Shown piece by piece: positions 18,483 through 46,457 of a stretch of DNA of 64,000 bases. Numbering within the stretch: position 1 is the first letter of the stretch; each line of letters opens with the position of its first letter. The position numbers were made by a program, and so were the translations under genes. Source of the DNA: an uncultured Anaerolineaceae bacterium (GTDB lineage: Bacteria > Chloroflexota > Anaerolineae > Anaerolineales > Anaerolineaceae); contig CALCNO010000046.1 of NCBI GenBank assembly GCA_937897615.1, positions 9,463 through 73,462 of the forward strand. Reading direction: 5' to 3'. The notes beneath the pieces are model-generated. The model saw nothing but the letters and a program-made list of their open reading frames with translations, was not told the origin of the DNA and made no database searches.

Positions 18483-18483
18483 C

Positions 18484-20243: not shown

Positions 20244-20247
20244 TCTT

Positions 20248-21123
20248 TTACTTGGATAAGTAGAACACGAGCAGCACTGCAATTCCCCATAAAACCACGG
20301 TGATCTGCAAGGGGCGGTCACTGATTAAGAGGTCTTCCGGTTCCCCGCCTTTTTTGCCGATTTGCATCAATGAGAGGTAACGAAAAATGCCATAAAGCAC
20401 AAAGGGAATGGTCAGCATCATGGTGTGGTTTTCCGGCAGGTTGGGTGCTGAAAAAGTGTACAGCGAATAGGCCATGATGGTAGTCGCCGATACTACTGTG
20501 ATCAACTGGTCGATCAGGTCAAGGGAGTAGCCTGCCAGCACCTTGCGGTGCGAAGTGGTGTTCTCCGGCACCAGCACCAGCAGTTCGGTGCGGCGTTTGC
20601 CGAGGCCGATGTAGAGAGACAGCAGGGTCATCACCACATACAGCCAGGGAGAGAAACGTGCCACCTCAATTACGGAAACACCAACCGCCACGCGCAGAAC
20701 AAAGCATGCCGCAATGACCAGTAAGTCAATCAACGGGATGTGCTTGAGCCATTTCGAGTATGCTAGGTTCAGCAGGAAGTATGCCAGAAAGAATAGGAAA
20801 GTATGCAGGTTCAGCAGGTAAGCGCCGGCATGGGCGAGGATGGCAAGAAGAATAGCGGTAGCTACGGCTAACTTTATGGAAAGCTTCCCTGACGCAATCG
20901 GGCGGTTCTTTTTGACCGGGTGCAGTTTATCAGCTTCCCGATCCATAATGTCGTTAATGAGGTACACGCTGCTCGCCAGAAGGCAGAACAGAGCAAAGGC
21001 AATCGCCGTGCGTGCCAGCGACGGAATTTCAAACAGTTTGCGGTCAAAAACCAGCGCCGCAAAAATAAACATGTTTTTTAGCCACTGTTTGGGGCGCATT
21101 GCCTTAAAAAGGTATTTAATCAT
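20248..21123 (-). CDS. UbiA-family prenyltransferase resembling decaprenyl-phosphate 5-phosphoribosyltransferase (DPPR synthase)
   Basis: Polytopic. NDIMDREADKLHPVKKNRPIASG first Asp-rich motif, and a C-terminal GGEPEDLLISDRPLQ segment like the Rv3806c subfamily (as I recall that sequence). Confidence 0.7.
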   Translation of the reverse strand: MIKYLFKAMRPKQWLKNMFIFAALVFDRKLFEIPSLARTAIAFALFCLLASSVYLINDIMDREADKLHPVKKNRPIASGKLSIKLAVATAILLAILAHAGAYLLNLHTFLFFLAYFLLNLAYSKWLKHIPLIDLLVIAACFVLRVAVGVSVIEVARFSPWLYVVMTLLSLYIGLGKRRTELLVLVPENTTSHRKVLAGYSLDLIDQLITVVSATTIMAYSLYTFSAPNLPENHTMMLTIPFVLYGIFRYLSLMQIGKKGGEPEDLLISDRPLQITVVLWGIAVLLVFYLSK

Positions 21124-22020: not shown

Positions 22021-23820
22021 ATGAGCATCGACCGGATTCGTAATTTTTGTATTATTGCCCATGTGGATCATGGAAAATCCACGCTTGCCGATCGCATGCT
22101 GCAGATCACCGGCACTGTCTCAGACCGCGAAATGGTAGAACAGGTACTGGACTCGATGGACCTGGAACGCGAAAAGGGCGTTACCATCAAAGCTTCGGCA
22201 GTGCGCATGAAGTACAACTACAAGGACACAGAGTACGAACTCAACCTGATCGATACGCCCGGGCACGTGGACTTTAATTACGAGGTGAGCCGTGCTCTTG
22301 AGGCCTGTGAGGGAGCATTGCTGGTGGTGGATGCCACCCAGGGAATCGAAGCGCAGACGCTGGCGAACCTGTACCTTGCGTTGGAATCCAACCTGGCTAT
22401 CCTGCCGGTGATCAATAAAATCGATCTGGCCTCTGCACGCCCGGATGAGGTGGCCGAGGAAATTGAGGCGCTGGTGGGTACGCCGGCGGAATCCATCCTG
22501 CGCGTTTCTGCCAAAGATGGTGTTAACGTAGAGAGCGTACTCAAGGAGATCGTTGAGAAGATTCCACCCCCCGCAAGAGATCTGCAGGCGCCCCTGCGGG
22601 CGTTGGTTTTTGATTCGCATTACGATTCTTACAAGGGTGTGGTGGCTTACATCCGTGTCATGGAAGGGTTTCTCCAGACCACCAACGTTGTCCGCATGAT
22701 GGCCACCGGCGCCGATGTAAAGCCCGTCGAAATCGGTGTGTTTGCTCCAGGGATGACGCCCATTGGCGAACTTGCTGCCGGAGACGTGGGCTATGTAGCC
22801 ACCGGTTTGAAGACGGTCAAGGAATGCCGCGTGGGTGATACGCTCACCCTGGCGGCCAACCCGGCAGAAAAACCGCTGCCCGGCTACCGCCACCCCAAGC
22901 CGATGGTATTTGCTGGCATCTTCCCTGTGGAGGGCGAAGATTACGGCGAACTTAAGGATTCCATCGAAAAACTGCAACTGAACGACGCTTCGCTGGTATA
23001 CGAGCCGGAAACCTCACAGGCGTTGAACTTTGGTTTTCGCTGCGGCTTTCTCGGCTTGTTCCACATGGAGATCATCCAGGAGCGCCTCGAACGTGAGTAC
23101 AACCTGGACATTGTGGTCACGGCCCCCAGTGTGGAATACGAGGTGCAATTAGCAACAGGAGAAACGGTGCTGGTGTCCTCACCGGCAAAGCTGCCGGATG
23201 AAGCATTGATTGCCGAGGTGCGCGAACCGTGGATGCGCCTGGAGGTGATCACCCCTACCGAGTTCTACGGAACGATCATGGAGTTGGTGACCAAACGCCG
23301 CGGCACCTTCATCTCGCAGGACTACCCGGCGCCCAAGCGTGTGCAGCTGAACTATGACATTCCGCTCTCTGAGTTGATTGTGGATTTCTTTGATGATCTG
23401 AAATCGCGTACGCGCGGGTATGCCTCCATGGATTACCACTTTTTGGAATATCGGCCCGGCAGCCTGGTGAAGCTTGAAGTGCTGGTAGATGAAGAGCCGG
23501 TGGATGCGCTGGCGGCAATTGTGCATAAAGAAGATGCCTATCACAAGGGGCAGTATCTGGTCACCAGGCTAAAGTCGCTGATTCCACGGCAGATGTTTGA
23601 TGTTGCCATCCAGGCCTCGGCCAGCGGGCGGGTGATTTCCCGTGCCAATGTGAAAGCACTGCGCAAGGATGTGCTGGCTAAGTGCTACGGCGGTGACATT
23701 ACCCGTAAGAAAAAGCTGCTGGAAAAACAAAAACGAGGCAAGCGCCGCATGAAAATGGTGGGCGATGTGGAAATCCCACAGGAAGCCTTTATGGCAGTGC
23801 TGCGCCTGGAAGAGGATTGA
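22021..23820 (+). CDS. lepA: Elongation factor 4 (LepA)
   Basis: [19 protein letters not shown]1 motif, [12 protein letters not shown], and the characteristic LepA C-terminal domain. Confidence 0.97.
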
Positions 23821-24833
23821 TGAAGAAAAAGGGAATCCCAAACTGGCTCAAGATCGTCCCGGGAGTTTTATTTAGCATACTGGCGGTGCTTGCGGTATTG
23901 AAGTTCGTAAATCCGGATGACTTGAAAAACGCGTTTTCCACGGTGAGTATCAAATTCATCCTGATGATTGCGGCCATGAATTTGATTAGCCTGCTGCTGC
24001 GCGGCAAGGCATGGCAAACCATCCTGGACAAGAAAATTAGCTTTTGGGATGCTTTCTTTGGGGTGAGTGAGGGGTATTTCCTTAATAACATCCTGCCGTT
24101 CAGGGCAGGGGAATTTGGGCGCTCCTTTTTTGTGGGGCGCAAGTCTGGCCTGGGAACCTTCTATACGCTTTCCAGCATTGTCATTGAGCGCGCCTTTGAT
24201 ATTGCCTTTGCTGCACTGCTGATCGTGGCCACGCTGCCCAACTTGACCGGCATGGAATGGGCCAAACCGATTGCGGTTGTAGCGCTTGTGCTGGTGTTCA
24301 TTGGCATGGTGTGTCTTTTTTTGCTTACCCGCTACAAGGAAAAGGTGCTGGGCTGGATCAGCCAGCACGAGGGCAAATCGCGTTTCTTTTCCATTGTGAT
24401 TCCTGTGGTTAAAAACCTGATCGAGGGGTTTTCCACGATCAAGCGTCCGGCGCAGTTCTTTCTTTCCCTGCTCTGGATTGCGCTTTGCTGGGGTGTTTGG
24501 TCTGCATTGTATTACCTGACAGTAATCCAGATATTGCCTGGGGAACCACTCTGGACGGGTGCGTTTATCGCCAGCGTGTTGGCACTTGGCATTGCCGTCC
24601 CCTCTGCGCCGGCAGCTCTGGGTGTATTTGAGGCCGCTATTACCGGCGCGGTGGTTCTGCTGGGGGGCACCACCGGCAGCGCATTTGGCTATGCCATGAT
24701 CGTCCACCTTATTCACTTTGTGGTAGCTGGCATATTGGGCATGTGGGGGTTGTCCCGGGATCAGGTCAGCTTTTCAACTTTGGTCAATGACGTGATGAAG
24801 AGAAGGGAATCTTCTCCAGAACCAAGGAGTTGA
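23820..24833 (+). CDS. Flippase-like polytopic membrane protein (LPG_synthase_TM / UPF0104 family)
   Basis: ATG overlaps the lepA TGA (TGATG). ~8 TM helices. Motif ILPFRAGEFGR is typical of the lysylphosphatidylglycerol-synthase TM region family. Confidence 0.65.
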   Translation: MKKKGIPNWLKIVPGVLFSILAVLAVLKFVNPDDLKNAFSTVSIKFILMIAAMNLISLLLRGKAWQTILDKKISFWDAFFGVSEGYFLNNILPFRAGEFGRSFFVGRKSGLGTFYTLSSIVIERAFDIAFAALLIVATLPNLTGMEWAKPIAVVALVLVFIGMVCLFLLTRYKEKVLGWISQHEGKSRFFSIVIPVVKNLIEGFSTIKRPAQFFLSLLWIALCWGVWSALYYLTVIQILPGEPLWTGAFIASVLALGIAVPSAPAALGVFEAAITGAVVLLGGTTGSAFGYAMIVHLIHFVVAGILGMWGLSRDQVSFSTLVNDVMKRRESSPEPRS

Positions 24834-24836
24834 GAT

Positions 24837-25865
24837 ATGAAAAACTTTACATTGATTACAGGTGGAGCGGGGTTCATTGGCTCCAATTATGCTGCTCGCT
24901 GTTTGCAGCGAGGCGAGGCGGTCAGGATTTTTGATAACCTTTCCCGCGCTGGCGCGCCGTTGAACCTGCGCTGGCTTGAAGATACCTTTGGCAAGGGGTC
25001 GTTTGAATTGATCCAGGGGGATGTGCGCGACGCCGAAGCCGTCACGAAAGTGGTCAGGGGCGCCAGCCGCATTTTGCACCTGGCTGCCCAGGTGGCGGTA
25101 ACTACTTCTGTCACCGACCCGGTGACCGATTTTGCCATCAACGCACAGGGCACCTTTAATGTGGTCGAGGCAGCCCGCAAATCCGGGACAAACCCTAAGC
25201 TGATCTTTGCTTCTACCAACAAGGTGTATGGCGGGATGGAAAATGTGCCCGTCGTGGAAAAAACCAGCCGCTACGAATACAAAGACCTGCCTTTTGGCGC
25301 AACCGAAGACCAACCGCTGGATTTTCACTCGCCCTATGGCTGTTCCAAGGGGAGCGGCGACCAGTACGTGCGCGACTATCACCGTATTTATGGACTAGCA
25401 ACACTGGTGTATCGCCAGTCCTGCATCTACGGAAGGCGCCAGTTTGGGGTTGAAGACCAGGGGTGGGTAGCTTGGTTCATCATTGCCGCGATTTTAGGGA
25501 AGCCCATTACCATCTACGGCAACGGAAAGCAGGTGCGTGACATCCTGTTTGTGGACGACCTGGTGGATGCCTATGATGCGGGTTTTGCCCGTTTGCCGGA
25601 AGTTGGTGGCCAAATCTTTAATATCGGTGGCGGCCACCAGAATACCATTTCGATCTGGTGTGAATTCCAGCCGATGTTGGAAGAATTGCTGGGGCGCAAG
25701 ATTGTTACCGCCAGTTCCGATTGGCGCCCGGGCGATCAGCCTGTGTTCATCTCCGACATTCGCAAGGCGCAAAAACGATTGGGGTGGTCTCCCAAAATCT
25801 CTGCGCAAAAGGGGATCGAGATGCTGTTCAACTGGGTCAAAGACAACCAGGCGTTATTCAAATAA
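24837..25865 (+). CDS. NAD-dependent sugar epimerase (extended SDR, CDP-paratose/tyvelose 2-epimerase-like)
   Basis: TGGAGFIGSN Rossmann motif, YGCSK catalytic YxxxK, length 342 aa. Confidence 0.8.
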   Translation: MKNFTLITGGAGFIGSNYAARCLQRGEAVRIFDNLSRAGAPLNLRWLEDTFGKGSFELIQGDVRDAEAVTKVVRGASRILHLAAQVAVTTSVTDPVTDFAINAQGTFNVVEAARKSGTNPKLIFASTNKVYGGMENVPVVEKTSRYEYKDLPFGATEDQPLDFHSPYGCSKGSGDQYVRDYHRIYGLATLVYRQSCIYGRRQFGVEDQGWVAWFIIAAILGKPITIYGNGKQVRDILFVDDLVDAYDAGFARLPEVGGQIFNIGGGHQNTISIWCEFQPMLEELLGRKIVTASSDWRPGDQPVFISDIRKAQKRLGWSPKISAQKGIEMLFNWVKDNQALFK

Positions 25866-25871
25866 CCCTTT

Positions 25872-27029
25872 ATGAAAATTCTGATCGTTCTGACTTATTA
25901 CCGGCCTCATATCAGCGGACTTACGATCTATGCTGAGCGTTTGGCAAAAGCTTTCGCCAAACGCGGGCACGAGGTGACCATACTCACTTCGCAGTTTGAG
26001 CCGGCGCTTGCCCGCGATGAAGTGGTGGACGGGGTCAGGATCATACGCGCTCCGGTGTTGTTCCGTTTGAGCAAAGGCGTCATCATGCCCACCTTTGGCT
26101 GGCTGGCTTCAAAACTGGTGAGCCAGGCCGACGTGATCCAGTTGCACCTGCCGCAATTCGATGCAGCCGGGATTTCGCTGCGGGGCAGGTTGTTGCGAAA
26201 ACCAACAGTCATCACTTACCATTGCGATCTCATACTGCCCCCCGGGTTGTTTAACCGCGTGGCCAATTTGGCCGTACTTTTTATGAACTGGCTGACAGCC
26301 ATTTTTACCCACCGCATTGTTACCTACACCCAGGATTACGCCGAGCATTCGGATTACCTCAAGAACAAAATGAAAAAGGTGAAGATCATCCCGCCTCCGG
26401 TGGTGCTGCCAGCTGTAAAACCAGAAGCGGTGCGCGCGTTTGCGCAGACCCACAATGCTCCCAACCGCCGCCCCGTCATTGGTATGGCCGCACGTTTTGC
26501 CACAGAAAAAGGGGTGGAGGTGCTTTTGGAGGCTTTGCCGCGCGTGCTGGAACGCTTCCCCAATGCGCTGGTGCAGTTTGTGGGGCCTTACCAGAACATC
26601 ATTGGCGAGGAGGAGTACTTCTCGCGCCTTTTGCCGCGCATTGCACAATACCAGCAAAGCGGGCATTGGCAGTTTTTAGGTTCACTCAACCCGGAACAAA
26701 TGGCTGCCTTTTTCCCCAACCTGGATGTGCTGGTGCTGCCCAGCCTTAACTCAACCGAGGCGTTCGGGTTAGTGCAGATCGAAGCGATGATGAATGGTGT
26801 TCCCTGCATAGCCTCTTCACTGCCAGGTGTGCGCCAGCCGGTTTTACGGCACGGCATGGGGCGCATCTTTCCCATAGGCGATTCGGCGGCATTGGCCGAT
26901 GCACTGATTGAAGTGCTGGCCAATAAGAAAAATTACACAACCAACCTGGTGCCATTTTCTATCTATGACCCCAACATGGTGGCACAGGATTACGAAGAAT
27001 TGTTTGCGGAACTTAAACAGAACATCTAA
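25872..27029 (+). CDS. Glycosyltransferase family 4 (GT-B, retaining type)
   Basis: N-terminal MKILIVLTYYRPHISGLTIY and the C-terminal EAFGLVQIEAMMNGVP (E-x7-E) motif. Confidence 0.85.
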   Translation: MKILIVLTYYRPHISGLTIYAERLAKAFAKRGHEVTILTSQFEPALARDEVVDGVRIIRAPVLFRLSKGVIMPTFGWLASKLVSQADVIQLHLPQFDAAGISLRGRLLRKPTVITYHCDLILPPGLFNRVANLAVLFMNWLTAIFTHRIVTYTQDYAEHSDYLKNKMKKVKIIPPPVVLPAVKPEAVRAFAQTHNAPNRRPVIGMAARFATEKGVEVLLEALPRVLERFPNALVQFVGPYQNIIGEEEYFSRLLPRIAQYQQSGHWQFLGSLNPEQMAAFFPNLDVLVLPSLNSTEAFGLVQIEAMMNGVPCIASSLPGVRQPVLRHGMGRIFPIGDSAALADALIEVLANKKNYTTNLVPFSIYDPNMVAQDYEELFAELKQNI

Positions 27030-27047: not shown

Positions 27048-30000
27048 GTGGCAATACTACCTGGTTCAAAAAAGGCGACGCGAAACCTGAGAGACCTGAA
27101 AATGCCGTGGGTCTGGGATATCCTGCTGATCGGCGTTTTGGCGATTGGCGCGTTCTTCCGTTTTACCGGCATCTCCTGGGACGATAACCACCACTTGCAT
27201 CCTGATGAGCGTTTTCTCACCATGGTGGAGTCAAGCATCTCTTCTGTGAAGAGCGCAGGCGAGTATTTTGATACTGCCAATTCCTCGCTGAATCCAAATA
27301 ACCGCGGCTATTCCTTCTACGTGTATGGCACGCTGCCCATTTTCATCGTTCGCTATGTGGGCGAATGGCTGGGGCAAACGGGATATGACCAGATCAACAT
27401 TGTTGGCAGAGTGCTTTCCGGCATTTTTGACCTGGGCACCATTTTGATGGTCTATTTGATCGGGCGCAGGCTGTATCGCAGTGCCCGGGTGGGGCTACTG
27501 GCGGCGCTGTTTGCCACCCTTTCGGTTTTACCGATTCAACTTTCACACTATTTTGCGGTGGATACATTTGCTAACTTCTTCGTTTATGCTGCGCTTTTTG
27601 CGGCCGTTTGCATCAGCACCGCTAAGCCCAAAATAGACGAAGCAATCTCTGCTGATCCTTCTGCGGCTGCGAAGAAATCCTGGTGGTTGCAAAACTGGCG
27701 CGAGTTTATTCCGTATGCCTTCTTTGGTTTGCTCTACGGAATGGCGCTTGCTTCCAAGGTGAGCGTTTATGCCCTGGCATTAGCCCTGCCTTTGGCTGCG
27801 CTTGTGTACTACCTTAACCTGCCGGAAGAAGACCGTGCGCAGGCCGTTCCATACCTGATCCGCAATCTGGTGCTGGCAGGCATTATCGCTTTCATTACGT
27901 TCCGCGTTTTCCAGCCGTATTCCTTCAAAGGCCCCGGCTTTTTTGGCCTGGGGATCAACCAGGGTTGGCTCAACAGCCTGAAGGAACTCAAAAATATCAG
28001 CAGCGGCAATGTGGACGTGCCGTATGCGTTGCAGTGGGCGCGCCGCCCGATCACCTTTGCCATCACCAACATGGTCAAATGGGGGCTGGGGCTGCCGCTG
28101 GGGCTGGCAGCCTGGGGCGGCTTCCTGTGGATGGCGTGGCGTTCCGTCAAAGGGGATTGGAAACGCCATTTGGTTGTCCTGTTTTGGGTTGCTTTTGTCT
28201 TCATCACCCAATCGCTCAATCCGGTGAGGGCAATGCGTTATCAACTCCCGGTATATCCGGCGCTGGCGTTGATTGCCTCCTGGATGATTTTCAAGCTCTG
28301 GGAGACCCAGCCGCGCAAAGTACGCAAGATCACCAATTTGAACATTAATTGGAATCGCATTTTCTCGGTACTCATCGCTGTGGTCACGATTGCCGGTAGC
28401 GCTTTGTGGGCTTTTGCATTTAGCCGTATTTATACCCGGCCGGTCACGCGGGTTGCCGCCAGTGAATGGATCTATGGGCACATTCCCGGCGCCATTAACT
28501 TGCAAGTGGATCCGGATTCCGGGATTCAATACATGCAGCCCGTGGCCTATCAGAACTCGGCGTATATCTCTGCTGATTCACCATACATTTACGGTATTAC
28601 CCCGTCTCAGGATGAAACTGTTACCAGCTTCACCATAGAACATGTGCTGGCTTCTCAGGCCTATGCAACGCCGGTATCTTTCGAGGTCTTCATCCGTGAA
28701 GCGCAGGGAAACGGCATGCTCTACAAAGGTGTCGGATTCTCTCAATCCCTGTTTGATACTTCTGCTGACGCCCAGGGCGGCAAGGTGGAAATCACCTTTG
28801 TGGACGGTGTGCGTTTGCAGAAGGGCCATTATTACGAAATTGTGCTCGATGCTGCCGAACCCGGGGTACTGCTCAAAATTTCTGGCGGCGCCTGGCTTGA
28901 ACTACGCTCTGGCTCTACAACGGCCATTCAGTATTTACCTGAGCCGGTTTTTCGGCTGACTGAGAATAACCCCTTCCAGACCACTTTTTCGGCGCAGAAC
29001 AATGGCAGCGTCTCTTTGATTCAATTGGGCCATATTGTGGATATTCTGGGGCTGCCAGATGCCAAGACGGTGACAGTTTCGATCATTGACCCCGCCAACC
29101 CCGACCAGCCGATTGGTTATGGGGAGCTCAAGGATCCCTTCCTGCCGGTTGATGACCCGCGCGGCGATTCGCGCTGGATCGAGCTTGAAAAGCCTGCCGT
29201 GCTTGAAAAAGGAAAGAGTTACACCCTTCTGCTGACGATGGAAGGCGCTAAAGGCGCACTGGGGCTTTTCAATGATGTTCTGGTGATGGAATCCACATGG
29301 GATGATGCCATCCCGCTGGGACTTTCCGGTTATGGCCCGTTTGGGTATGAGACGGGGATCTATGGAAACAACCGTAATCTGGAGCTTTACTGGAACGATA
29401 ATGAGGACAAGCTGCAAAGGTTTTACTCCACGCTGGATCAATCGGATGTGATTGTGATCACCTCCAACCGCCAGTGGGGAACTACCGTGCGCGTGCCAGA
29501 ACGCTACCCACTGACCATACAATACTACCGCTCGCTGATGGGATGCCCGGAAGGCGAAGACACCATTAAGTGTTACGCAGATGCTCAGCCGGGTATGTAT
29601 CAGGGCCAGCTTGGTTTTGAGTTAACGGCGGTATTTGAAAGTGACCCAAACATCGGAAGTTTTAAGATCAATGACCAGTTGGCCGAAGAAGCCTTTACCG
29701 TATACGACCATCCCAAGGTGTTGATCTTCCAAAAGACGGATAATTACCATCCCGCAACGATACGGGAAATTCTCGGCAGTGTGGACCTCAGCCAGGTGGT
29801 TCAACTCACCCCTGCCCAGGCAAGCAAGTATGAAGGCAATCTTTATCTGAGCGACAGCGCCCGGCAAACCCAAACGGATGGGGGCACCTGGTCGGAGTTG
29901 TTCCCGGCAGATTCGCCTCTCAATCAGCACCCCTGGTTGGCGATGGCTGCCTGGTATCTTTTGATTGCGCTGTTGGGCTGGCTGGTGTACCCAATTCTGC

Positions 30001-32369
30001 GGGTTGTGCTCAAAGGGTTGCCGGACAAAGGTTACCCGTTTGCCCGCATCACCGGCCTGCTATTGCTGGCTTACACAACCTGGCTCATCAGCTCTGTTGG
30101 CGGCACATTCTCACGCCTTACCATACTGCTTTGTCTTTTGGCATTGGTGCTGCTCAGTGCGTTCCTGGCGTTTAAAGATCGCCGGAACTTCAAAGCCGAG
30201 ATCGCAGCAAGGTGGAAATACTTCCTGAAAGTGGAAGCGGTGATGCTTCTGCTTTTTGCTGTCATGCTTTACATCCGCTGGAATAACCCGGATTTATGGC
30301 ATCCGTGGCGCGGCGGCGAAAAGCCCATGGACCTTTCCTACTTTACGGCAGTGTTGAAGAGCACTGTCTTCCCGCCGTATGATCCCTGGTATGCAGGCGG
30401 ATACATCAATTATTACTACTTTGGCTTTGTGATCGCCGCAGTTCCAACAAAACTGCTGGGGATTGTTCCGTATGTTGTGTACAACCTGATCATCCCCACC
30501 TTCTTTGCCTTGACCGGCCTGGGGGCGTTCAGCCTCGGTTGGAATCTGCTCCATCGCCGCTCAAAAGACGATGAGCCTTCAGTGGATGAATCCAGGGCAT
30601 CCGAAAGGCGGAGTTTTACCGCCGGCCTTATCAGCACATTCCTGGTGCTGATCGTGGGCAACCTGGGAACGGTGCGTATGATCAGCCAGGCGTTCCAAAA
30701 ACTGGTGGCTCCCGGCGGGGTGCTCGATGGCGCGACTCTGGCGCAACACTTTGAGTGGTTCTTCAAGGGGCTGGCGGCTTTTGCCAAAGGCGGCGTGGAA
30801 TTGCCAATTGGCTGGGGCGAGTGGTACTGGACGCCTTCGCGCGCTCTTCCCGGGGATACGATCACCGAATTCCCGTTTTTCACCTTCACCTATGCCGACC
30901 TGCACGCGCACATGCTGGCGTTGCCGATCACGCTGCTGGTATTGGCACTGGCCCTGTCCTTTATTTTTCAGCACTGGCGATATGAGGGAGCGACCAACAA
31001 GGGGCACATCTTGCAGGTTGGCCTCACGCTCGCTTTTACTGGCTTGATCCTGGGCGCTCTCAAAACCACGAATACGTGGGACTGGCCTACCTATCTGGCG
31101 CTTGTCAGTGTGGCGGTCATTTTCTCGGTATTCAAGTACGGGGATGTGCCGGGCTGGTTCTTCCCGCGCAGAAAAGCCTGGCTGCGCAAGGGTTTGATGA
31201 GCATTGGGATCATCGGGGTCATTGCCGCGTTTTCTGCGTTATTCTTCCTGCCTTTCTCGGCGAATTATGCCCAGGCGTATGGCACGCTTGAAAAGTGGAC
31301 CGGGGATCACTCACCACTGGGTTCCTACCTTGTCCATTGGGGCTTACCCTTCTTCCTCATCGTCAGTTGGTTCGTCTGGGAAACGCGCCAGTGGATGGCC
31401 AGCACACCGGCTTCTGCCCTTGAGAAAAGCAAACCCTATCTGATTTATCTGGAAATCCTTGCCATCCTTTTCTTTGTCATCCTGGCCTTGCTCACCATGC
31501 TTGGCATCAAGATCGGCTGGCTGGTGGGGCTTCTGGCGGTCTGGGACCTGCTGCTTCTGCTGCGGCCGGGGATCAGCGATGAGAAACGCATTGTGCACTT
31601 TATGATCGGCACGGGGCTTGTTCTCACGCTCTTCGTCGAGTTATTTGTCCTTGTGGGCGATGTGGGCAGGATGAACACCGTTTTCAAATTCTATTACCAG
31701 GCGTGGACACTGTTCAACATCAGTGCAACTGCTGCGCTGGTATGGCTTATCCCGGCTGTAAAGAATACCTGGAAGGAACGCAATGCGGCGATCTGGCAGG
31801 TTGTGCTGGCGTTTCTGTTGATCGCGGTATATTTGTACCCCGTCACCGCCGCTACTGATAAGATGCGCGACCGCATGTCCGAATCTACCCCCAAAACTCT
31901 CGATGGCCTTGAGTTTATGAAGACCTCCACTTATTGGGATATGGATCGGCAGATGGACCTCAGCCAGGATTATGCTGCTATCAAGTGGATGCAGGAGAAT
32001 GTGCAAGGCTCGCCGGTGATCGTGGAAACGAACACTGTGGAATATCGCTGGGGCAATCGTTTTACCATCTATACTGGACTGCCGGGCGTTTTGGGCTGGA
32101 ACTGGCATCAGCGGCAGCAGCGCGGCGCGCTTGATTACAATGGCATCGCCAGCCGCCTGGAGGAAATACCGGCATTCTACCTCACTGAGGATGTAAATGA
32201 TGCGGTGGCCTTCTTGAAGAAGTACAATGTTGAGTACATCATCCTCGGGCAGCTTGAACAGGCGTATTATCCAGGAAACGGGCTGCTGAAGTTTGCGCAA
32301 TATGATGGCATTTACTGGAAAGAGGTGTATCACGAGCAGGATACCGTGATTTACCAGGTTATTCATTAG
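27048..32369 (+). CDS. Giant (1773 aa) polytopic membrane protein with three parts. It has an N-terminal PMT/ArnT-like GT-C module, a ~500-aa extracytoplasmic beta-rich region, and a Chlor_Arch_YYY (DUF2298) module with a C-terminal soluble domain.
   Basis: GTG start (alternative ATG at 27102). The first loop HLHPDERF has a GT-C-like acidic motif. There are many TM helices in two blocks (27.1-28.4 kb and 29.9-31.9 kb). YINYYYFGF motif, with YYY encoded at 30411-30419. Strong paralogy to the next gene. Confidence 0.75.
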   Translation: MAILPGSKKATRNLRDLKMPWVWDILLIGVLAIGAFFRFTGISWDDNHHLHPDERFLTMVESSISSVKSAGEYFDTANSSLNPNNRGYSFYVYGTLPIFIVRYVGEWLGQTGYDQINIVGRVLSGIFDLGTILMVYLIGRRLYRSARVGLLAALFATLSVLPIQLSHYFAVDTFANFFVYAALFAAVCISTAKPKIDEAISADPSAAAKKSWWLQNWREFIPYAFFGLLYGMALASKVSVYALALALPLAALVYYLNLPEEDRAQAVPYLIRNLVLAGIIAFITFRVFQPYSFKGPGFFGLGINQGWLNSLKELKNISSGNVDVPYALQWARRPITFAITNMVKWGLGLPLGLAAWGGFLWMAWRSVKGDWKRHLVVLFWVAFVFITQSLNPVRAMRYQLPVYPALALIASWMIFKLWETQPRKVRKITNLNINWNRIFSVLIAVVTIAGSALWAFAFSRIYTRPVTRVAASEWIYGHIPGAINLQVDPDSGIQYMQPVAYQNSAYISADSPYIYGITPSQDETVTSFTIEHVLASQAYATPVSFEVFIREAQGNGMLYKGVGFSQSLFDTSADAQGGKVEITFVDGVRLQKGHYYEIVLDAAEPGVLLKISGGAWLELRSGSTTAIQYLPEPVFRLTENNPFQTTFSAQNNGSVSLIQLGHIVDILGLPDAKTVTVSIIDPANPDQPIGYGELKDPFLPVDDPRGDSRWIELEKPAVLEKGKSYTLLLTMEGAKGALGLFNDVLVMESTWDDAIPLGLSGYGPFGYETGIYGNNRNLELYWNDNEDKLQRFYSTLDQSDVIVITSNRQWGTTVRVPERYPLTIQYYRSLMGCPEGEDTIKCYADAQPGMYQGQLGFELTAVFESDPNIGSFKINDQLAEEAFTVYDHPKVLIFQKTDNYHPATIREILGSVDLSQVVQLTPAQASKYEGNLYLSDSARQTQTDGGTWSELFPADSPLNQHPWLAMAAWYLLIALLGWLVYPILRVVLKGLPDKGYPFARITGLLLLAYTTWLISSVGGTFSRLTILLCLLALVLLSAFLAFKDRRNFKAEIAARWKYFLKVEAVMLLLFAVMLYIRWNNPDLWHPWRGGEKPMDLSYFTAVLKSTVFPPYDPWYAGGYINYYYFGFVIAAVPTKLLGIVPYVVYNLIIPTFFALTGLGAFSLGWNLLHRRSKDDEPSVDESRASERRSFTAGLISTFLVLIVGNLGTVRMISQAFQKLVAPGGVLDGATLAQHFEWFFKGLAAFAKGGVELPIGWGEWYWTPSRALPGDTITEFPFFTFTYADLHAHMLALPITLLVLALALSFIFQHWRYEGATNKGHILQVGLTLAFTGLILGALKTTNTWDWPTYLALVSVAVIFSVFKYGDVPGWFFPRRKAWLRKGLMSIGIIGVIAAFSALFFLPFSANYAQAYGTLEKWTGDHSPLGSYLVHWGLPFFLIVSWFVWETRQWMASTPASALEKSKPYLIYLEILAILFFVILALLTMLGIKIGWLVGLLAVWDLLLLLRPGISDEKRIVHFMIGTGLVLTLFVELFVLVGDVGRMNTVFKFYYQAWTLFNISATAALVWLIPAVKNTWKERNAAIWQVVLAFLLIAVYLYPVTAATDKMRDRMSESTPKTLDGLEFMKTSTYWDMDRQMDLSQDYAAIKWMQENVQGSPVIVETNTVEYRWGNRFTIYTGLPGVLGWNWHQRQQRGALDYNGIASRLEEIPAFYLTEDVNDAVAFLKKYNVEYIILGQLEQAYYPGNGLLKFAQYDGIYWKEVYHEQDTVIYQVIH

Positions 32370-32386
32370 GTTGGGATGGGATACCG

Positions 32387-34963
32387 TTGAGCGATTTCCT
32401 AGCGTTTCTTAGCTGGTATTTGGTGATACTTTTGGTCGGCCTGCTTTCGCTGCCGATTGCCTTTCGCCTTTTTTCACGCCTGGGAAGCAGGGGCTATGCG
32501 CTGATCCGTCCGATCAGCCTGCTGGTGTGGGGATACGTTTTCTGGCTGTTATGTTCACTGGGAATCTTGCAGAATGACCTGGGGGGTGTGCTGCTGGCTT
32601 TGGCTGCGCTGCTGCTGTTTTCTGTGTTGCTTTTGCGCAAAGGCAAGTGGGCAGAGTTAAAGCAGTGGTTAAAGGACAACTGGCGCTTCATACTTGTTGC
32701 TGAAGTTGTCTTCCTGGTCTTGTTCGCCGGCTGGGCAGTGGTGCGCGCGGCCAACCCTGATGCGGCTTACACCGAAAAACCCATGGAGTTGGCCTTTATT
32801 AATTCCATCCTCAAATCAGAGGCTTTCCCCCCGCAGGATCCCTGGCTTTCGGGTTATTCGATCTCTTACTACTATTTTGGCTACGTGCTGGTTTCGATGC
32901 TGATACGGGTAACGGGCGTGGCGTCTTCAGTGGCATTCAACCTGAGTTCCGCATTGTGGTTTGGTATCACCGGAATGGCGGCGTATGGGTTGGTGCATGA
33001 TCTCCTGTGGGCCTGGAAAGGCAGAACTGCTGCTGGCCAAGCTGGCAGCAAAAAGACTGCTGGTTTTGCCCGCCTGGGTGCTCTGCTGGGACCTTTCTTC
33101 CTTCTGCTCATCGGTAACCTGGAAGGGTTTCTGGAATTATTGTATGCGCGCCACGCTTTTTGGAAGGTTGGCGCGGACGGCACCCTGGCCTCCCGATTCT
33201 GGAATTGGCTGGGTATTTTGGAATTGAACACTCCGCCGACGCAGCCGCTCTCCTGGCTGCCAAACCGCACCGCCGGGTGGCTGTGGTGGCGCGGCTCACG
33301 CGTGATCCAGGATTTGAGCCTTTCCGGCGGGAACATTGAAGTTATTGATGAATTCCCATTCTTTACATACCTGATCTCAGACCTTCACCCGCACCTGCTG
33401 GCAATGCCGTTTTGCCTGCTGGCAATTGCACTGGCACTGAATGCCTTTCTCTCACGGGATGAGCAGAGCTTCCCGTTGCCGATTTCTACCTCCTGGCTCA
33501 AGAACTGGCAGGCGTGGCTGACGATCCTTGCACTAGGCAGCCTGGCGTTTTTTAACACCTGGGATTTTCCCATCTACGTAGGCCTGTATGCCCTGGTGGT
33601 GATTTACAAGCGTATCCTGGAGAAAGGCTGGGCCTGGAGGAGAGCCTGGGAGTTCCTTCTGTGCGGGTTGTATCTGGGTATTGGCGGCATTGTCCTGTTC
33701 CTGCCTTTCTACCTGGGGTTCCAGTCACAGGCCGGTGGATTGTTGCCCAGCCTGGAATACATTACCCGGGGCGTCAATTTTTGGGTGATGTTTGCCTGCT
33801 TCCTGAGCCTGATCCTGATCTGGCTGGCCTGGCAGATCAAACGTCGCGAACTTGCCTTCGACTGGAAGAAGAGCCTGAAGATTGTTCTTTTTGGGGTATT
33901 GGGTTTATTCCTGCTTTCACTGGCATGGGGGTGGGTTGTTCTTGGGTTAGGCGGGCTGGGAGCGGCCCTGCTGCAAAACCAAAGCTCCTTGCTGGCATCT
34001 CTGGGAGCGAAGGCCTCGATGGGAGGACAATTATTTGCTTCAGTGCATGATAATTTTCCAACCTCAATGATCTTGCAGGAGGCGATTTTCAGGCGGGTGA
34101 CCTCGCCGGGAACCTGGGTCACATTAACGCTAATCCTCATCGGCACGGTTGGCTTCATTGCCGGCATTTCTCGCACCACTAAGGCAGAGGAGCAGCCACA
34201 GCGCAGCGCTGATGCAGCATGGCAGCCGCCTAACATTAAGATATTCATCCTGTTGTTGATCCTTTTGGGAACAGGATTAACCCTGCTCCCTGAGTTCTTC
34301 TACCTGCGCGACCAGTTTGGCTGGCGCATGAACACGATCTTCAAGTTCTATTTTCAGGCCTGGGCGCTTTGGTCGCTGGCAGCGGCCTTCATCAGCGTGG
34401 AATTGTTGAGCACGCTCAAACGCTGGCGCTACGCTGCCTTTTCACTTTTCTGGACGGCGTTGGTGGTAGTGAGCCTGGCTTACCCGGTGCTGATGGTATT
34501 GAACAAGACCAATAACTTTACACCGGCTGAGTGGACACTGGACGGCGATGCCTATATTGCCCGCTATACGCCTGACGAATATGCTGCGATGCAATGGCTG
34601 AAAGACCAGAATCTTGGCATTGTCGCCGAGGCGGTTGGCGGTAGTTACTCTGATTACGCGCGCGTGTCCACCAGAACCGGCTTTCCTACCGTGCTTGGCT
34701 GGCCAGGCCACGAGAGCCAGTGGCGTGGCGGCGCCACGGAAATGGGCAGCCGGGAACAGGATATCCGGCGCCTTTATGAAACAGACATGCCCGAGGAAAT
34801 GTTTGCAATTCTGAACAAATACGACATTTGCTATGTTTACCTGGGGAACCTGGAGCGCGTACAATATGTTGTCAATCAGGGGAAGTTCGATGCCTGGTTG
34901 AGTGTTCTGTATTCAAACAATAGCGTTATTATCTATCAAGTTCCCGCAAATAATGGAGAGTAG
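32387..34963 (+). CDS. Chlor_Arch_YYY (DUF2298) polytopic membrane protein, 858 aa
   Basis: TTG start after GGGATGGGA. Motifs shared with the C-terminal half of the giant upstream protein: EKPMEL, FPPQDPW, ISYYYFGY (YYY at 32867-32875), EFPFFTY..DLHPH, FNTWDFP, MNTIFKFYFQAW, and the C-terminal TLDG...VLGWPGHESQWRG domain. Confidence 0.8.
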   Translation: MSDFLAFLSWYLVILLVGLLSLPIAFRLFSRLGSRGYALIRPISLLVWGYVFWLLCSLGILQNDLGGVLLALAALLLFSVLLLRKGKWAELKQWLKDNWRFILVAEVVFLVLFAGWAVVRAANPDAAYTEKPMELAFINSILKSEAFPPQDPWLSGYSISYYYFGYVLVSMLIRVTGVASSVAFNLSSALWFGITGMAAYGLVHDLLWAWKGRTAAGQAGSKKTAGFARLGALLGPFFLLLIGNLEGFLELLYARHAFWKVGADGTLASRFWNWLGILELNTPPTQPLSWLPNRTAGWLWWRGSRVIQDLSLSGGNIEVIDEFPFFTYLISDLHPHLLAMPFCLLAIALALNAFLSRDEQSFPLPISTSWLKNWQAWLTILALGSLAFFNTWDFPIYVGLYALVVIYKRILEKGWAWRRAWEFLLCGLYLGIGGIVLFLPFYLGFQSQAGGLLPSLEYITRGVNFWVMFACFLSLILIWLAWQIKRRELAFDWKKSLKIVLFGVLGLFLLSLAWGWVVLGLGGLGAALLQNQSSLLASLGAKASMGGQLFASVHDNFPTSMILQEAIFRRVTSPGTWVTLTLILIGTVGFIAGISRTTKAEEQPQRSADAAWQPPNIKIFILLLILLGTGLTLLPEFFYLRDQFGWRMNTIFKFYFQAWALWSLAAAFISVELLSTLKRWRYAAFSLFWTALVVVSLAYPVLMVLNKTNNFTPAEWTLDGDAYIARYTPDEYAAMQWLKDQNLGIVAEAVGGSYSDYARVSTRTGFPTVLGWPGHESQWRGGATEMGSREQDIRRLYETDMPEEMFAILNKYDICYVYLGNLERVQYVVNQGKFDAWLSVLYSNNSVIIYQVPANNGE

Positions 34964-34966
34964 ACT

Positions 34967-36643
34967 TTGGCTGCAGAAGAGATGAAGAAACCGCGTGTGG
35001 CAGTAGAGACTGCTCTTTATTTTGCCCTGCTCCTTTTTGCGGTACTGTTGCGCTTTATCGGCCTGGGCGCCGTGGGGCTTTCTGACCGGGAAGCTGCGAG
35101 TGCGTTGCAGGCTCTCAGCCTTTCGAGCGGCAGCGAAAGCCTGATCGGCTCACAGCCGGGCTACATTGGCCTTACGACAGGATTATTTGCTTTGTTTGGC
35201 GGCACGGGTTTCTGGGCGCGTTTTTGGCCGGCGGCCTTCGGTTCATTGCTCGTGCTTGTTCCGGCACTCTACCGCAAGTACCTGGGCAGGATGCCGGCTT
35301 TGCTGCTGGCTGCGTTGTTGGTCTTCGACCCCCTGATGGTCAGCCTTTCCAGAACGGCAGCAAGTTCAATGATGGGCATTACCTGTCTGTTGGCCGGCCT
35401 GGGGTTCCTGCTCTTGCGCAGGCCGGTGCTTGCCAGCTTATGCTGGGGAGTGTTCCTCAGTGCTGGCAGCGAGATCTGGCCGGGCATGGCGGCGATTTTG
35501 CTCTCTTGGTTTGCTTTCCGCTATCTCTTTGCCGGGGAGTCCCAAACACAACTGGATTGGAAAAAGCTGTTGTTTCCCGGATTGGTGCTTTTTGCATTGA
35601 TTACCACGCAATTTCTGTTGTATCCCAATGGCGTCAGCGGTTTTGGTTCCAGCCTGGTGGACTATTTGCAGAGTTGGGCTTCAAAGAGCGGCATTGATTT
35701 AGGCCACTTTCTGCTGGAGATAGTGCTGCTTCAACTTCCTTTGATGGTTTTTGGCCTCATCGCGGTGGCCAGCGGGATTTTCAAAAAACACAAATCGTAC
35801 TGGTTCCTTGCCACCTGGTGGGGATTAGCTTTTATCCTGGTGCTGGTTAACCCTGCGCGCAATCCTTCCTTGATGGGGTGGGCGACCATCCCGGCACTGT
35901 GCCTGACAGCGCTGCTGCTATCCAATTACTTTGAACACATTCACTTTGACAATCGTTGGATCGGGTACGGGCAGATTGTGTTTAGTTTTTTGATGTTCAC
36001 CATTGCTCTTTTGTATCTTATGAATGTGCTTAACTTCCCGGATACCGACCCGGTGCTCTTCAGGAACAAAGTGCTGGCGGTTTTCCTGCCGTTGATCTTG
36101 CTGGCTGCGGTAACGGGTTTGTTTAGCTGGGGCTGGAATTCCACTGCCGCCAAACATGGCTTGCTGCTCACACTCTGTACCCTGGGCGTTCTTATGATGC
36201 TGAGTAACGGCTGGAAGGCCACTGGCTGGACCTCCCCGGCGGAGATGCAGTTGTGGCGTGGAGAGCAGACTGTGATTGGGGACAAGGTGCTGATGCAGGA
36301 GGTTGCCAACCTGGGGCGCTGGACGCATGGCCGTGCGGATGTCCTCAAGGTTGAAATTGCCGGGCTGGATTCTCCCGCGCTTGACTGGGCATTAAGGAAT
36401 ATCAATGGCTTTGAGCACTCAGAGCAGGTGAATTCCAGGACTACTGTTGAGGCCTTTATTACAACCCCCGACGCGCTTATAACTACCGAGGCTTCTTACC
36501 GCGGGCAGGAAATACTCTGGTCAACAATCCCGGATGTGCAGGCCTTTAGCGCTTCGGATTGGGCAAAATGGATGGTGTATCGGAAAGCTCCTGTGCGTTC
36601 TGAGAAAATCGTGTTGTGGGTACGCAACGATCTGTTCAAGTGA
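34967..36643 (+). CDS. Polytopic membrane protein, PMT/ArnT-like GT-C candidate (resembles the TIGR03663-type partner of YYY proteins)
   Basis: TTG start 6 nt after AATGGAGAG. ~12 predicted TM helices. The first loop has LSDREAA, and there is a ~130-aa C-terminal soluble domain. The family assignment is by resemblance and context only. Confidence 0.55.
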   Translation: MAAEEMKKPRVAVETALYFALLLFAVLLRFIGLGAVGLSDREAASALQALSLSSGSESLIGSQPGYIGLTTGLFALFGGTGFWARFWPAAFGSLLVLVPALYRKYLGRMPALLLAALLVFDPLMVSLSRTAASSMMGITCLLAGLGFLLLRRPVLASLCWGVFLSAGSEIWPGMAAILLSWFAFRYLFAGESQTQLDWKKLLFPGLVLFALITTQFLLYPNGVSGFGSSLVDYLQSWASKSGIDLGHFLLEIVLLQLPLMVFGLIAVASGIFKKHKSYWFLATWWGLAFILVLVNPARNPSLMGWATIPALCLTALLLSNYFEHIHFDNRWIGYGQIVFSFLMFTIALLYLMNVLNFPDTDPVLFRNKVLAVFLPLILLAAVTGLFSWGWNSTAAKHGLLLTLCTLGVLMMLSNGWKATGWTSPAEMQLWRGEQTVIGDKVLMQEVANLGRWTHGRADVLKVEIAGLDSPALDWALRNINGFEHSEQVNSRTTVEAFITTPDALITTEASYRGQEILWSTIPDVQAFSASDWAKWMVYRKAPVRSEKIVLWVRNDLFK

Positions 36644-36668
36644 GATCACATCTTTCGAAGGGAAAACA

Positions 36669-42039: not shown

Positions 42040-42053
42040 ATTCGTCAATATGC

Positions 42054-42080
42054 TTGATTTTGTAAAAAAAGTGGTATAAT
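42054..42080 (+). promoter_or_regulatory. Candidate promoter for rpoC with an extended -10 (TGGTATAAT)
   Basis: TTGATT at 42054-42059 and TGGTATAAT at 42072-42080 (15-nt spacer to the hexamer, so mainly an extended -10 type). AT-rich context ~110 nt upstream of the rpoC GTG. Confidence 0.5.
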
Positions 42081-42191
42081 TTGCGGTTGCATGATTTTTA
42101 AGGATTTTTCTCCCTCTCTCTGACCCGCGCTTTTACCACCTGCGCGCTTATTTGTTTAATCGCATAAGGTTCCCATTCAGGAGGCAGTTTA

Positions 42192-45100: not shown

Positions 45101-46457
45101 AGACGGCATCTGGATTCGCAAGGAAGATGATGTTGCCGGGCAAAAGATGAGCGAGCGCCTGTTTGGCCGCACAGTTCAAGGGCGTGTGATCGATCCTGCA
45201 ACCGGCGAGATTCTGGTGGAACGCGGAGAACTGCTGGACCATGAGTCAATCCGCAAGGTGATGAACGCCAAAGTGGACAAGGTGTTCGTGCGTTCTCCAA
45301 TGACCTGCTCATTGATCCACGGTATTTGTGCAAAATGCTACGGTATGGACCTTGGGCGTGGGAAGCTGGTGGAGTTGGGTTCGGCCGTCGGTGTTGTGGC
45401 TGCCCAGTCCATTGGCGAGCCAGGCACCCAGCTGACGCTGCGTACCTTCCACATGGGCGGTGTTGCCGTCAGCGGCGATATCACCACCGGTTTGCCCAGG
45501 GTGGAAGAGCTCTTTGAAGCCCGCCGTGAACCGAAAGGTGAAGCTGTGATCACCGGCATTGAGGGCTACGCGACCATCTTCCAGGGTGAGCGCGCTGGTG
45601 AGCAGCGCATCATCCGCGTGGAACATGTCGAAATGGTTTCCGATGACTATGAGATTCCTGAGGAATGGTCCATCAAGGTGAAGGCCAAGGATACAGCGGC
45701 CGTGGGTGATGTACTGGCCGAACTTGGCGATGCCCGGATGAATGCCCAGCACGCCGGCATCATTCGCGTGGATGGTCGCAAGGTGAGCGTGGCGTATGAG
45801 CAAAAGGAAACTGAGGATTACGAAATCCCCAGCACTTCACGCATCATCATTCAGGACGGCCAAAAGGTGGAAGCCGGCCAGGCCCTCACCGAGGGTTCAT
45901 TGAATCCGCATACCATCCTCAAGATCAAAGGCCGCGAGGCTGCCCAGGTGTACATCATGACCGAAGTGCAAAAGGTGTACCGCGCGCAGGGCCAGAACAT
46001 CAATGATAAGCACTTTGAGGTGATCATCCGCAAGATGGTCGGCAAAGTGCAGGTACTACGCCCGGGTGACTCCAGCTACCTGCCGATGGACATGGTGGAT
46101 CGCCTGGAACTCAAGCGGGAGAATGAGCGCCTGGTTGCCGAAGGCAAGCAGCCTGCACGCTTTGTAGAAATCCTGCTGGGTGTGACCAAAGCCTCCTTGA
46201 GCACAGATTCCTTCCTCTCGGCTTCCTCTTTCCAGCATACCATCAAGGTGCTGGCCGGAGCAGCCATCGCCTCCACTGAGGATCCTTTGTATGGCTTGAA
46301 GGAAAACGTCATCATCGGCAAGCTCATCCCGGCCGGTACTGGTTTTGTACACGGGCGCTTTACCCCCGTTACGGAAACCGTGGAAGGAACGGAAGCTGCC
46401 GAAGCGGTAAGTGAAGAGAACCCTGCAACTCCTGAAGAACCACAGGCTGCAGAATAA
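42192..46457 (+). CDS. rpoC: DNA-directed RNA polymerase subunit beta' (RpoC) with a large coiled-coil lineage-specific insertion
   Basis: GTG start after AGGAGG. Zn-finger [23 protein letters not shown], catalytic NADFDGD, and the bridge helix and trigger loop regions are all recognisable. Confidence 0.97.

Follow-up and report, generated by a model that had tools for sequence, protein, structure and literature searches.

We analysed a window of 64,000 nucleotides (nt) from an uncultured Anaerolineaceae bacterium of the phylum Chloroflexota (contig CALCNO010000046.1, positions 9,463 to 73,462 of the forward strand), with a focus on a gene located at 27048..32369 (+). Its open reading frame (ORF), its translation and its full-length homologues define a 1773-amino-acid (aa) protein with about 27 transmembrane (TM) helices, in which a module resembling the protein O-mannosyltransferases (PMT) and ArnT (hereafter the N-module) is fused to a module of the YYY family (DUF2298). 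Structure predictions assign the GT-C fold of glycosyltransferases to both modules, and the gene sits in an operon together with a predicted cytoplasmic glycosyltransferase, a flippase-like protein and further membrane proteins.

The ORF, far beyond anything expected by chance, opens with a GTG codon preceded by a putative ribosome-binding site (GGAG, 8 nt upstream), with an ATG at codon 19 as the alternative start; a 1755-aa version, shorter by 18 residues, is on record from JGI, and a protein identical to the 1773-aa product is also already on record. A protein cluster search returned more than 110 clusters of full-length homologues of the same length at 46-75% identity. Moreover, a scan of species-representative genomes with the pattern LHPDERF, derived from the HLHPDERF motif of the N-module, found a relative in at least 593 species genomes, this figure being a lower bound. 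The best 80 of these all belong to the Anaerolineae and include the cultured Ornatilinea apprima, Levilinea saccharolytica and Thermanaerothrix solaris. The first-pass annotation of this DNA had described a single polypeptide and had named, as the case that would undo it, a frameshift concealing two genuine genes. The artefactual joining of two genes by an assembly or sequencing error is extremely improbable and was rejected: we found no support for it beyond a few related loci with split ORFs (L006, L023, L027, L067 and L088), independent assemblies give an uninterrupted ORF for 71 of 82 related loci, the protein clusters mentioned above carry it as well, and the junction between the modules (aa 900-961) is conserved in sequence among the fused homologues. 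We read the five broken copies as assembly errors, because the neighbouring genes in those contigs are fragmented as well. The fusion of 1773 residues is thus real and widely conserved in Anaerolineae.

Hydropathy and the secondary structure given by AlphaFold2 (AF2) divide the protein into a first polytopic block ending at about residue 463, a hydrophilic region of about 500 residues (464-961) where beta strands prevail at 483-748 and an alpha/beta part spans 786-951, another polytopic block (962-1604) and a soluble tail of 169 aa (1605-1773). This layout agrees closely with the one previously drawn from the sequence (polytopic at about 1-460 and 960-1620, the last 155 residues or so being soluble), and the four motifs that had been singled out are all present where they had been placed, namely HLHPDERF at aa 49-56, EKPMDL at 1091-1096, FPPYDPW at 1108-1114 and YINYYYFGF at 1119-1127. 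The region of about 460-960 had been described as hydrophilic and beta-rich; it is hydrophilic, but it is not one domain, and beta structure is confined to 483-748.

A topology model combining AF2 helices, hydropathy and the positive-inside rule predicts 11 + 16 = 27 TM helices, with the N-terminus inside and both the middle region and the tail outside. Lysine and arginine account for 40 of the 166 residues in short inside loops vs 11 of the 110 residues in short outside loops. The model places all conserved motifs, as well as a conserved cysteine pair, outside; the cytoplasmic location of the acidic motifs, which had been put forward as a counter-case, is not what it gives, and we infer that these motifs face the exterior.

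The N-module (aa 1-478; 27048..28481, +) is characterized by its AF2 model, Foldseek, NCBIfam and the topology model, which together describe an 11-TM PMT/ArnT/oligosaccharyltransferase-like GT-C fold with its N-terminus inside and its C-terminus outside. Each half of the protein was modelled with AF2 from an alignment of about 48 homologues, and the model of residues 1-960 reached a pLDDT of 85.6. Comparison of this model with the PDB by Foldseek yielded 35 matches at E<=1e-3, 33 of which are GT-C enzymes: AglB came first (3e-8), followed by STT3, Pmt4, PglB, ArnT, EmbA/B and ALG12, and the matches include entries 6p25 and 7bvc. The Emb proteins align with the N-half over more than 900 columns, and the two remaining matches are SIDT1 chains that align on the beta region. 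On the strength of structure prediction, the N-module is therefore a GT-C fold, as had been claimed.

That it is more specifically PMT/ArnT-like is suggested by weak but specific sequence matches. NCBIfam models for protein O-mannosyltransferase (NF058602; E=3.9e-7, 29 bits vs a cutoff of 800) and ArnT (E=2.4e-4) both match the N-module, and profile searches of the PDB retrieved Pmt2 and ArnT as marginal matches only (E=0.0034 for yeast Pmt2), while a sequence search of the PDB with the whole 1773-aa protein gave no match. Some homologues of the N-module pass the Pfam thresholds for PMT (PF02366) or PMT_2 (PF13231), and its relatives are named ‘glycosyltransferase family 39’ or ‘ArnT family’ by NCBI. 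TIGR03663/Agl23 (cutoff 126.25 bits) did not match the N-module even at E<=10, and no STT3 family matched the fused protein in Pfam and NCBIfam scans. The oligosaccharyltransferases STT3, AglB and PglB (GT66) have 13 TM helices and bear a WWDYG motif in their C-terminal domain; the fused protein contains no WWDYG, only a conserved ExxWDD (STWDD at 749-753). In eukaryotic PMTs the large loop that connects TM7 to TM8 holds a MIR domain on the luminal side; Pfam scans detected no MIR family here, and the loop matching the PMT TM7-TM8 loop has 48 residues (289-336).

Conservation singles out the HLHPDERF motif (27192..27215, +) in the first outside loop, with D53-E54 as candidate catalytic residues. 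The earlier placement of this motif in the first loop is borne out by the topology model, where D53-E54 sit outside, 14 residues after TM1. Among the 48 fused homologues H49, H51, P52, D53, E54, R55 and F56 are invariant, and a more diverse set (A3) keeps L50, H51, P52, D53 and E54 without exception. Other predicted outside loops also hold residues invariant in the fused family (Q164, S166, H167, D172, R286, Q289, P290, Q329, W330, R333, M396, R397 and Y398), and most invariant residues of the fused family persist in the more diverse set. The N-module hence looks catalytic from its conservation pattern.

The middle region consists of two parts. The first is a beta-rich insert (aa 483-748; 28494..29291, +), modelled by AF2 entirely as beta strands and interpreted as an accessory outside domain; it is optional, being missing in 23 of 79 complete fused representatives. 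The second is an alpha/beta outside domain with a linker (aa 749-960; 29292..29927, +), delineated by invariant columns and present in all 79, which is the N-module’s own C-terminal soluble domain: its first ~150 positions also occur in most of the stand-alone N-module relatives of 549-646 aa. This domain carries the conserved motifs ExxWDD, SNRQWG and FTVYDHPKV as well as the Cys833/Cys842 pair, and its invariant residues are E748, W751, D752, D753, R808, Q809, C833, C842, Y886 and D887. Neither Pfam nor NCBIfam matched any family on aa 461-980, nor any carbohydrate-binding family on the beta insert; these scans give no ground for labelling the middle region a carbohydrate-binding module, and the parallel with the modules of AftD/Emb-type enzymes drawn in the first-pass annotation is a possibility at most.

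Pfam, NCBIfam, AF2 and Foldseek define the second membrane module (aa 961-1607; 29928..31868, +), with about 16 TM helices and a predicted start from the outside, and Foldseek and TIGR03662 define its C-terminal outside domain (aa 1608-1773; 31869..32366, +). The only Pfam family seen is DUF2298 (PF10060), which covers residues 1006-1556 at 5e-117 (392 bits vs a cutoff of 27.8). TIGR03662, ‘Chlor_Arch_YYY’, spans 962-1771 with 535.5 bits (cutoff 300.25), and the YYYxG signature is found as NYYYFG at 1121-1126, so that by sequence the module is a bona fide TIGR03662 member. The AF2 model of residues 940-1773 (pLDDT 86.8, pTM 0.91) had as its best Foldseek match the arabinofuranosyltransferase AftA (8if8; E=2.3e-5, target-normalised TM-score 0.51), with AftB and PglB as weaker ones; with two matches at E<=1e-3, this support is thinner than for the N-module. 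Besides, Foldseek aligned the soluble tail with the globular domain at the C-terminus of AglB-S2 (3vu0; probability 1.0, TM-score 0.55). Prediction and structural comparison, with AftA on top, thus confirm the YYY module as a second GT-C fold. Its outside-facing motifs are EKPMD, FPPYDPW, YYY, TEFPFF, ADLHAH, NTWDWP and GRMNTVFKFY, of which the cores EKPM, FPPxDPW, YYYxG, EFP, DxHxH, NxWDxP and RMNxxFKF are invariant, including in the stand-alone 858-aa paralogue encoded downstream. EKPMD follows the fourth helix of the module, that is, in its first long outside loop and not in its first loop. The N-terminus of the stand-alone YYY protein is acidic and 3 residues long, and its first loop is positively charged, from which we read that it also starts from outside; this orientation would explain how a YYY module can be appended after an outside domain.

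No similarity could be detected between the two halves: hhalign gave probabilities below 1% both for the N-module vs the YYY membrane part and for the alpha/beta domain vs the YYY C-terminal domain, nor did BLASTP detect any. Internal duplication was therefore rejected in favor of the fusion of two different families.

The fused gene belongs to an operon in the order LepA, flippase-like LPG_synthase_TM protein, short-chain dehydrogenase/reductase (SDR), GT4 glycosyltransferase, fused gene, stand-alone YYY, 558-aa protein and Cmk, with gaps of -4 to 18 nt in the window. This order is kept across the sampled Anaerolineae loci, 67 or 68 of which underlie the following counts. The GT4 gene, 18 nt upstream of the fused gene (25872..27029, +; Pfam Glycos_transf_1 and Glyco_transf_4), encodes a predicted cytoplasmic glycosyltransferase present in 67/67 loci. 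It is preceded by an optional SDR-type sugar epimerase/dehydratase (24837..25865, +; Pfam Epimerase and GDP_Man_Dehyd; 48/67 loci) and by an MprF-type flippase-like membrane protein of the LPG_synthase_TM family (23817..24833, +; PF03706 at 3e-39; 64/67 loci), which scores 42.0 bits with TIGR00374, just under the cutoff of 43.2. The position of the SDR hosts a variable cassette within the otherwise fixed operon, judging from two loci (L002, 5651-9970; L088, 4837-9001) where a methyltransferase and an extra PMT_2 GT-C gene of 713-731 aa, upstream of the fused gene, replace it.

Downstream, after 17 nt, lies the stand-alone YYY/DUF2298 paralogue of 858 aa (32387..34963, +; TIGR03662, 494 bits; 65/68 loci), 32% identical to the fused YYY module. 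It is followed by a 558-aa polytopic protein (34967..36643, +; 68/68 loci), which TIGR03663 relates remotely to Agl23 and GT-C proteins (E=1.4e-10, 40.8 bits, far under the cutoff of 126.25). The latter aligns with the N-module in hhalign with a 67-sequence profile (probability 45%, E=2e-4, 310 colinear columns) and carries an [DE]xEA motif in loop 1, whose E41 is conserved in 63/67 sequences, yet it is devoid of the 749-960 domain; these comparisons relate it to the N-module at a distance and do not make it a module of the same type. The first-pass annotation had held that the downstream genes encode the same two module types as separate proteins, which stands for the 858-aa paralogue and does not for the 558-aa protein, GT-C-like at a distance only. 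The YYY family itself is already database knowledge, and TIGRFAMs comments record its co-occurrence with PMT-like proteins and that of TIGR03662 with TIGR03663. The stand-alone YYY and the Agl23-like protein form such a TIGR03662/TIGR03663 pair, whereas the fused N-module is not a TIGR03663 member and looks catalytic, Agl23 being interpreted as a flippase. In three Thermanaerothrix loci (L035, L042 and L046) the fused gene and the 558-aa gene are kept and the YYY gene between them is absent; the second YYY therefore seems dispensable in that genus. The cmk ORF (36534-37346) shares 110 nt with the end of the 558-aa gene, and its Pfam match begins at residue 52 only, so the true cmk start is probably near 36660-36690.

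The best explanation of these observations, to which we give a probability of about 0.7, is that two different outside-facing GT-C modules are combined in one chain and that the operon builds an envelope glycan. The protein would be one large inner-membrane enzyme with both modules working at the outer face of the membrane, each taking a sugar from a polyprenyl-phosphate-linked donor and adding it to a growing envelope glycan or glycoconjugate. Synthesis would begin inside the cell with a lipid-linked primer made by GT4; a lipid-linked intermediate would be carried outward by the flippase-like protein, and the glycan would be extended or decorated by four GT-C-like modules, including the stand-alone YYY and the Agl23-like 558-aa protein. 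Fusion would hold together two consecutive or cooperating steps, as the non-covalent Pmt1-Pmt2 or EmbA-EmbB dimers do. In those dimers too, two related GT-C subunits act together, but here the modules come from different families, with the hhalign probability below 1% given above, and are covalently joined.

A reading that we consider very unlikely gives a transport role, not that of a transferase, to one GT-C-like component: the N-module or the Agl23-like 558-aa protein would translocate a lipid-linked sugar, and the fusion would tie this flipping step to the transfer carried out by the YYY module. TIGR03663 is indeed named ‘flippase activity-associated protein Agl23’ and matches both the 558-aa protein and a partial N-module relative (P0256; 4.9e-9), and purified Haloarcula Agl23 was shown to move Man5GlcNAc2-PP-dolichol across liposome membranes and to rescue yeast rft1-delta (PMC11182771). 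However, these matches are far under the family cutoff, the N-module itself has none and keeps an invariant DE pair with many other invariant outside residues, as a catalytic GT-C enzyme would, and the operon already encodes a separate flippase-like protein.

To compare fused and split architectures, an exhaustive HMMER search with residues 1-960 was performed, which retrieved 4148 representatives at 50% identity (E<=1e-3), and the best 150 were classified with purpose-built domain profiles. Seventy-nine of these 150 are complete fusions (N-module, optional beta insert, alpha/beta domain, YYY), confirming that the fusion is conserved across genomes, and most of the shorter proteins end in mid-domain and are fragments. 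Two relatives of 2434 aa (P0248) and 2445 aa (P0250) have a second YYY unit fused after the first, and P0255 likewise displays the order N-module, alpha/beta domain, YYY, YYY. Some candidate architectures were rejected: P0256 (723 aa) as a genuine split form, being labelled ‘partial’ at source, and the fused forms of ~1200 aa (P0299) and the 595-aa P0396, whose neighbouring genes are fragmented, as assembly errors. Of 119 matches to a relative without the beta insert, 92 are stand-alone proteins of 549-646 aa made of the N-module and the alpha/beta domain, several of them from Patescibacteria.

We examined five such split loci of the Patescibacteria type (L083-L087). Each contains a separate DUF2298 gene of 685-806 aa in a cluster with the stand-alone N-module. 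Four (L083-L086) encode a GT4 orthologous to that of the window (300-323 bits) and the fifth a GT4-type gene; extra PMT_2 paralogues recur as well. In addition, a LytR_cpsA_psr gene is found in L083-L085, a small HAD-like protein with a DxDGV motif in L083, L084 and L086, an LPG_synthase_TM flippase-like protein in L085, and in L087 a PAP2 phosphatase next to DUF2298. That the modules are fused in Chloroflexota and split but clustered elsewhere, the Rosetta-stone comparison proposed in the first-pass annotation, supports their functional coupling, and the two modules may pair physically. L083-L086 also encode a PRK07233-type oxidoreductase dependent on flavin adenine dinucleotide (NF005560, 375-433 bits where scanned), HpnE/phytoene-desaturase-like and adjoining UbiA in L086, which could by analogy be an oxidase acting on a lipid-linked sugar in a DprE1-like role. 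A tblastn search of the window with this oxidoreductase and with the HAD-like, LytR_cpsA_psr and L085 flippase-like proteins gave no match.

Three of the split clusters (L083, L084 and L087) lie directly downstream of pilN/pilO, near murJ, which raises the possibility of pilin glycosylation. More generally, the acceptor could be a surface protein (S-layer, pilin or others) rather than a polysaccharide or lipoglycan, the enzyme then acting in the manner of an oligosaccharyltransferase or O-glycosyltransferase. The best fold matches of the N-module (AglB/STT3/PglB and Pmt4), the NCBIfam Pmt match at 3.9e-7 and the likeness of the YYY C-terminal domain to that of AglB all go in this direction. 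So does the conserved ExxWDD, which in relatives without the beta insert comes shortly after the last N-module helix, roughly where we take oligosaccharyltransferases to carry WWDYG. A protein-linked version could possibly add a pentofuranose, as TfpW does on Pseudomonas pilin, whose arabinosylation uses a phosphoribosyltransferase-derived donor (PMC11127046). We nevertheless regard protein glycosylation as unlikely: WWDYG and MIR are both missing, 11 helices are modelled instead of 13, Pfam scans revealed no pilus genes near the Anaerolineae operon, and a glycopolymer accounts better for the LytR_cpsA_psr genes of L083-L085, for a GT4 that is conserved and for the presence of four GT-C-like modules in each operon. 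Assembly of an envelope glycan remains the preferred reading; the gene neighbours suggest that the fused enzyme takes part in making a cell-surface glycan, perhaps from pentofuranose sugars as in mycobacterial arabinan.

A candidate source of such sugars lies upstream. A UbiA-family gene (20248..21123, -) passes the NCBIfam equivalog cutoffs for decaprenyl-phosphate phosphoribosyltransferase with both NF008977 (250.5 bits vs 234) and NF008978 (231.8 vs 207). It belongs to four overlapping or abutting genes (17331-21123, -), where UbiA overlaps a mevalonate kinase, followed by an isopentenyl phosphate kinase and an HD phosphohydrolase. We read them as one operon linking the supply of isoprenoids with a polyprenyl-phosphoribose synthase, in which the HD protein might be the missing phosphoribose phosphatase. 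Of 67 Anaerolineae loci, 46 have UbiA at a distance of no more than 10 kb on the upstream side. Among the split clusters, it is contiguous with the HAD-like protein and GT4 in L086, where the phosphoribosyltransferase model is the top match at 175 bits, under the cutoff, and directly upstream of the GT-C genes in L087, with 207.6 bits just meeting the cutoff of 207. Kelly et al. 2024 (PMC11127046) showed that such parts serve in extracytoplasmic pentofuranose addition: a synthase and a phosphatase, a flippase, a GT-C enzyme that bears an outside domain, and an optional GalE-like SDR changing the pentose; in the mycobacterial counterpart the phosphatase is a separate one, Rv3807c. Taken together, the AftA match of the YYY module, the UbiA context and this parts list lead to a specific donor hypothesis, the most specific and least certain step of our interpretation: the nearby UbiA, which we infer to serve the operon, may supply as donor a pentofuranose, either ribofuranose or an epimer of it, linked to polyprenyl phosphate.

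We propose, tentatively and as one joint claim involving DUF2298, the GT39-like module, GT4, the flippase and the UbiA-type phosphoribosyltransferase together, that the DUF2298/YYY proteins would form a new family of transferases adding pentofuranosyl residues (arabino-, ribo- or xylofuranosyl) outside the cytoplasm, within an arabinan-like cell-wall glycopolymer pathway, an assignment that is possible and still some way short of probable.

Several points weigh against the envelope-glycan interpretation and this pentofuranose extension of it. The Pfam PMT model (PF02366) matches the N-module at E=0.0026 with 17.8 bits, below the gathering threshold of 22.7. Because each query has several domains, Foldseek gives TM-scores of a modest 0.3-0.5, HPDE and EKPMD are equated with known catalytic residues by topological position only, and the two halves were modelled separately, so that contacts between the modules fall outside what the models cover. 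A literature search returned no functional paper on DUF2298 or on the N-module subfamily. The UbiA gene lies on the strand opposite to the fused gene, at a distance of 6 kb, and shares its operon with genes of the mevalonate pathway; this region is syntenic across the sampled Anaerolineae, which makes adjacency weak and non-independent evidence; UbiA is within 10 kb in only 46/67 loci and 2/5 split clusters, and no UbiA occurs within 8 kb in L083-L085. No phosphoribose phosphatase was identified in the window: tblastn with the HAD-like protein found no relative and Pfam scans of the larger ORFs no PAP2 family. Finally, the SDR may do no more than supply GT4 as an enzyme of nucleotide-sugar metabolism.

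The system resembles several known ones, each in part. With PMT and ArnT (GT39/GT83; PMT and PMT_2 families) the N-module shares the GT-C fold, the acidic DE pair in the first outside loop, the modelled 11 helices with their orientation and the weak but specific sequence matches; it differs in its score under the Pfam threshold, the absence of MIR, another alpha/beta C-terminal domain and the fused second GT-C module. The parallel with the mycobacterial arabinan pathway involves AftA as the best structural match of YYY, the long alignment of the Emb proteins with the N-half, a GT-C membrane core with large outside domains as in Emb and AftD, and a decaprenyl-phosphate phosphoribosyltransferase nearby; unlike AftA and Emb, the window protein belongs to none of their sequence families, has no Arabinose_trans match and combines two catalytic-looking modules in one chain. 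The three-component pentofuranose systems (GT136; PMC11127046) follow a similar logic of parts, to which the UbiA-type synthase, the candidate flippase, the GT-C modules together with their outside domains and the optional GalE-like SDR may correspond, and their phosphatase finds a parallel in the HAD-like or PAP2 proteins of the split clusters. In contrast to these systems, the flippase candidate here is MprF-type, not MATE, the synthase lies outside the operon in Anaerolineae, the GT-C modules are DUF2298 and GT39-like, set apart from GT136 without direct comparison, and the conserved GT4 and four GT-C-like modules suggest the assembly of a whole polymer, not the addition of a single side chain.

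Two other features of the window may be mentioned. In the region 38767-46457, rpoC (42192..46457; 1421 aa) follows a gene for a Cache/HAMP/GAF histidine kinase instead of rpoB, an order also seen in the related locus L001; the Rpb1 domain-1 match of rpoC extends over ~500 residues where the model has 312 positions, pointing to a large insertion in this domain. The segment 52573-57633, with a GC content of 0.48 vs ~0.54 elsewhere, encodes a sugar ABC transporter (solute-binding protein and two permeases) and an alpha-amylase-family enzyme.

Literature searches found no published study of the function or fold of DUF2298/YYY, the matches for ‘YYY domain’ being set aside as the unrelated Y_Y_Y domain. 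What is new here is that DUF2298 is assigned to GT-C, that the fusion is dissected into its domains, that the modules are seen to be fused or split in different phyla and that a link to a phosphoribosyltransferase is drawn; these results provide a fold assignment and a pathway context for what was formerly only a name. The family is large, with the 4148 representatives matching the N-half, and the envelope glycans made by GT-C enzymes, among them arabinan, lipid A modifications and protein glycans, are essential and targeted by drugs. Here two different GT-C families are naturally joined in one covalent chain, and in another phylum they occur split and clustered, which is direct genomic evidence of joint work. 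If the pentofuranose proposal is true, it would uncover an unrecognised pathway common to Chloroflexota, in fused form, and Patescibacteria, in split form, as a counterpart of mycobacterial arabinan synthesis, and the covalent fusion would reveal an obligatory heterodimer of two different GT-C families. The filamentous Anaerolineae, abundant in digesters and sediments, and the Patescibacteria may thus carry a pentofuranose surface polymer made outside the membrane, a prediction for which Ornatilinea, Levilinea and Thermanaerothrix offer cultured carriers.

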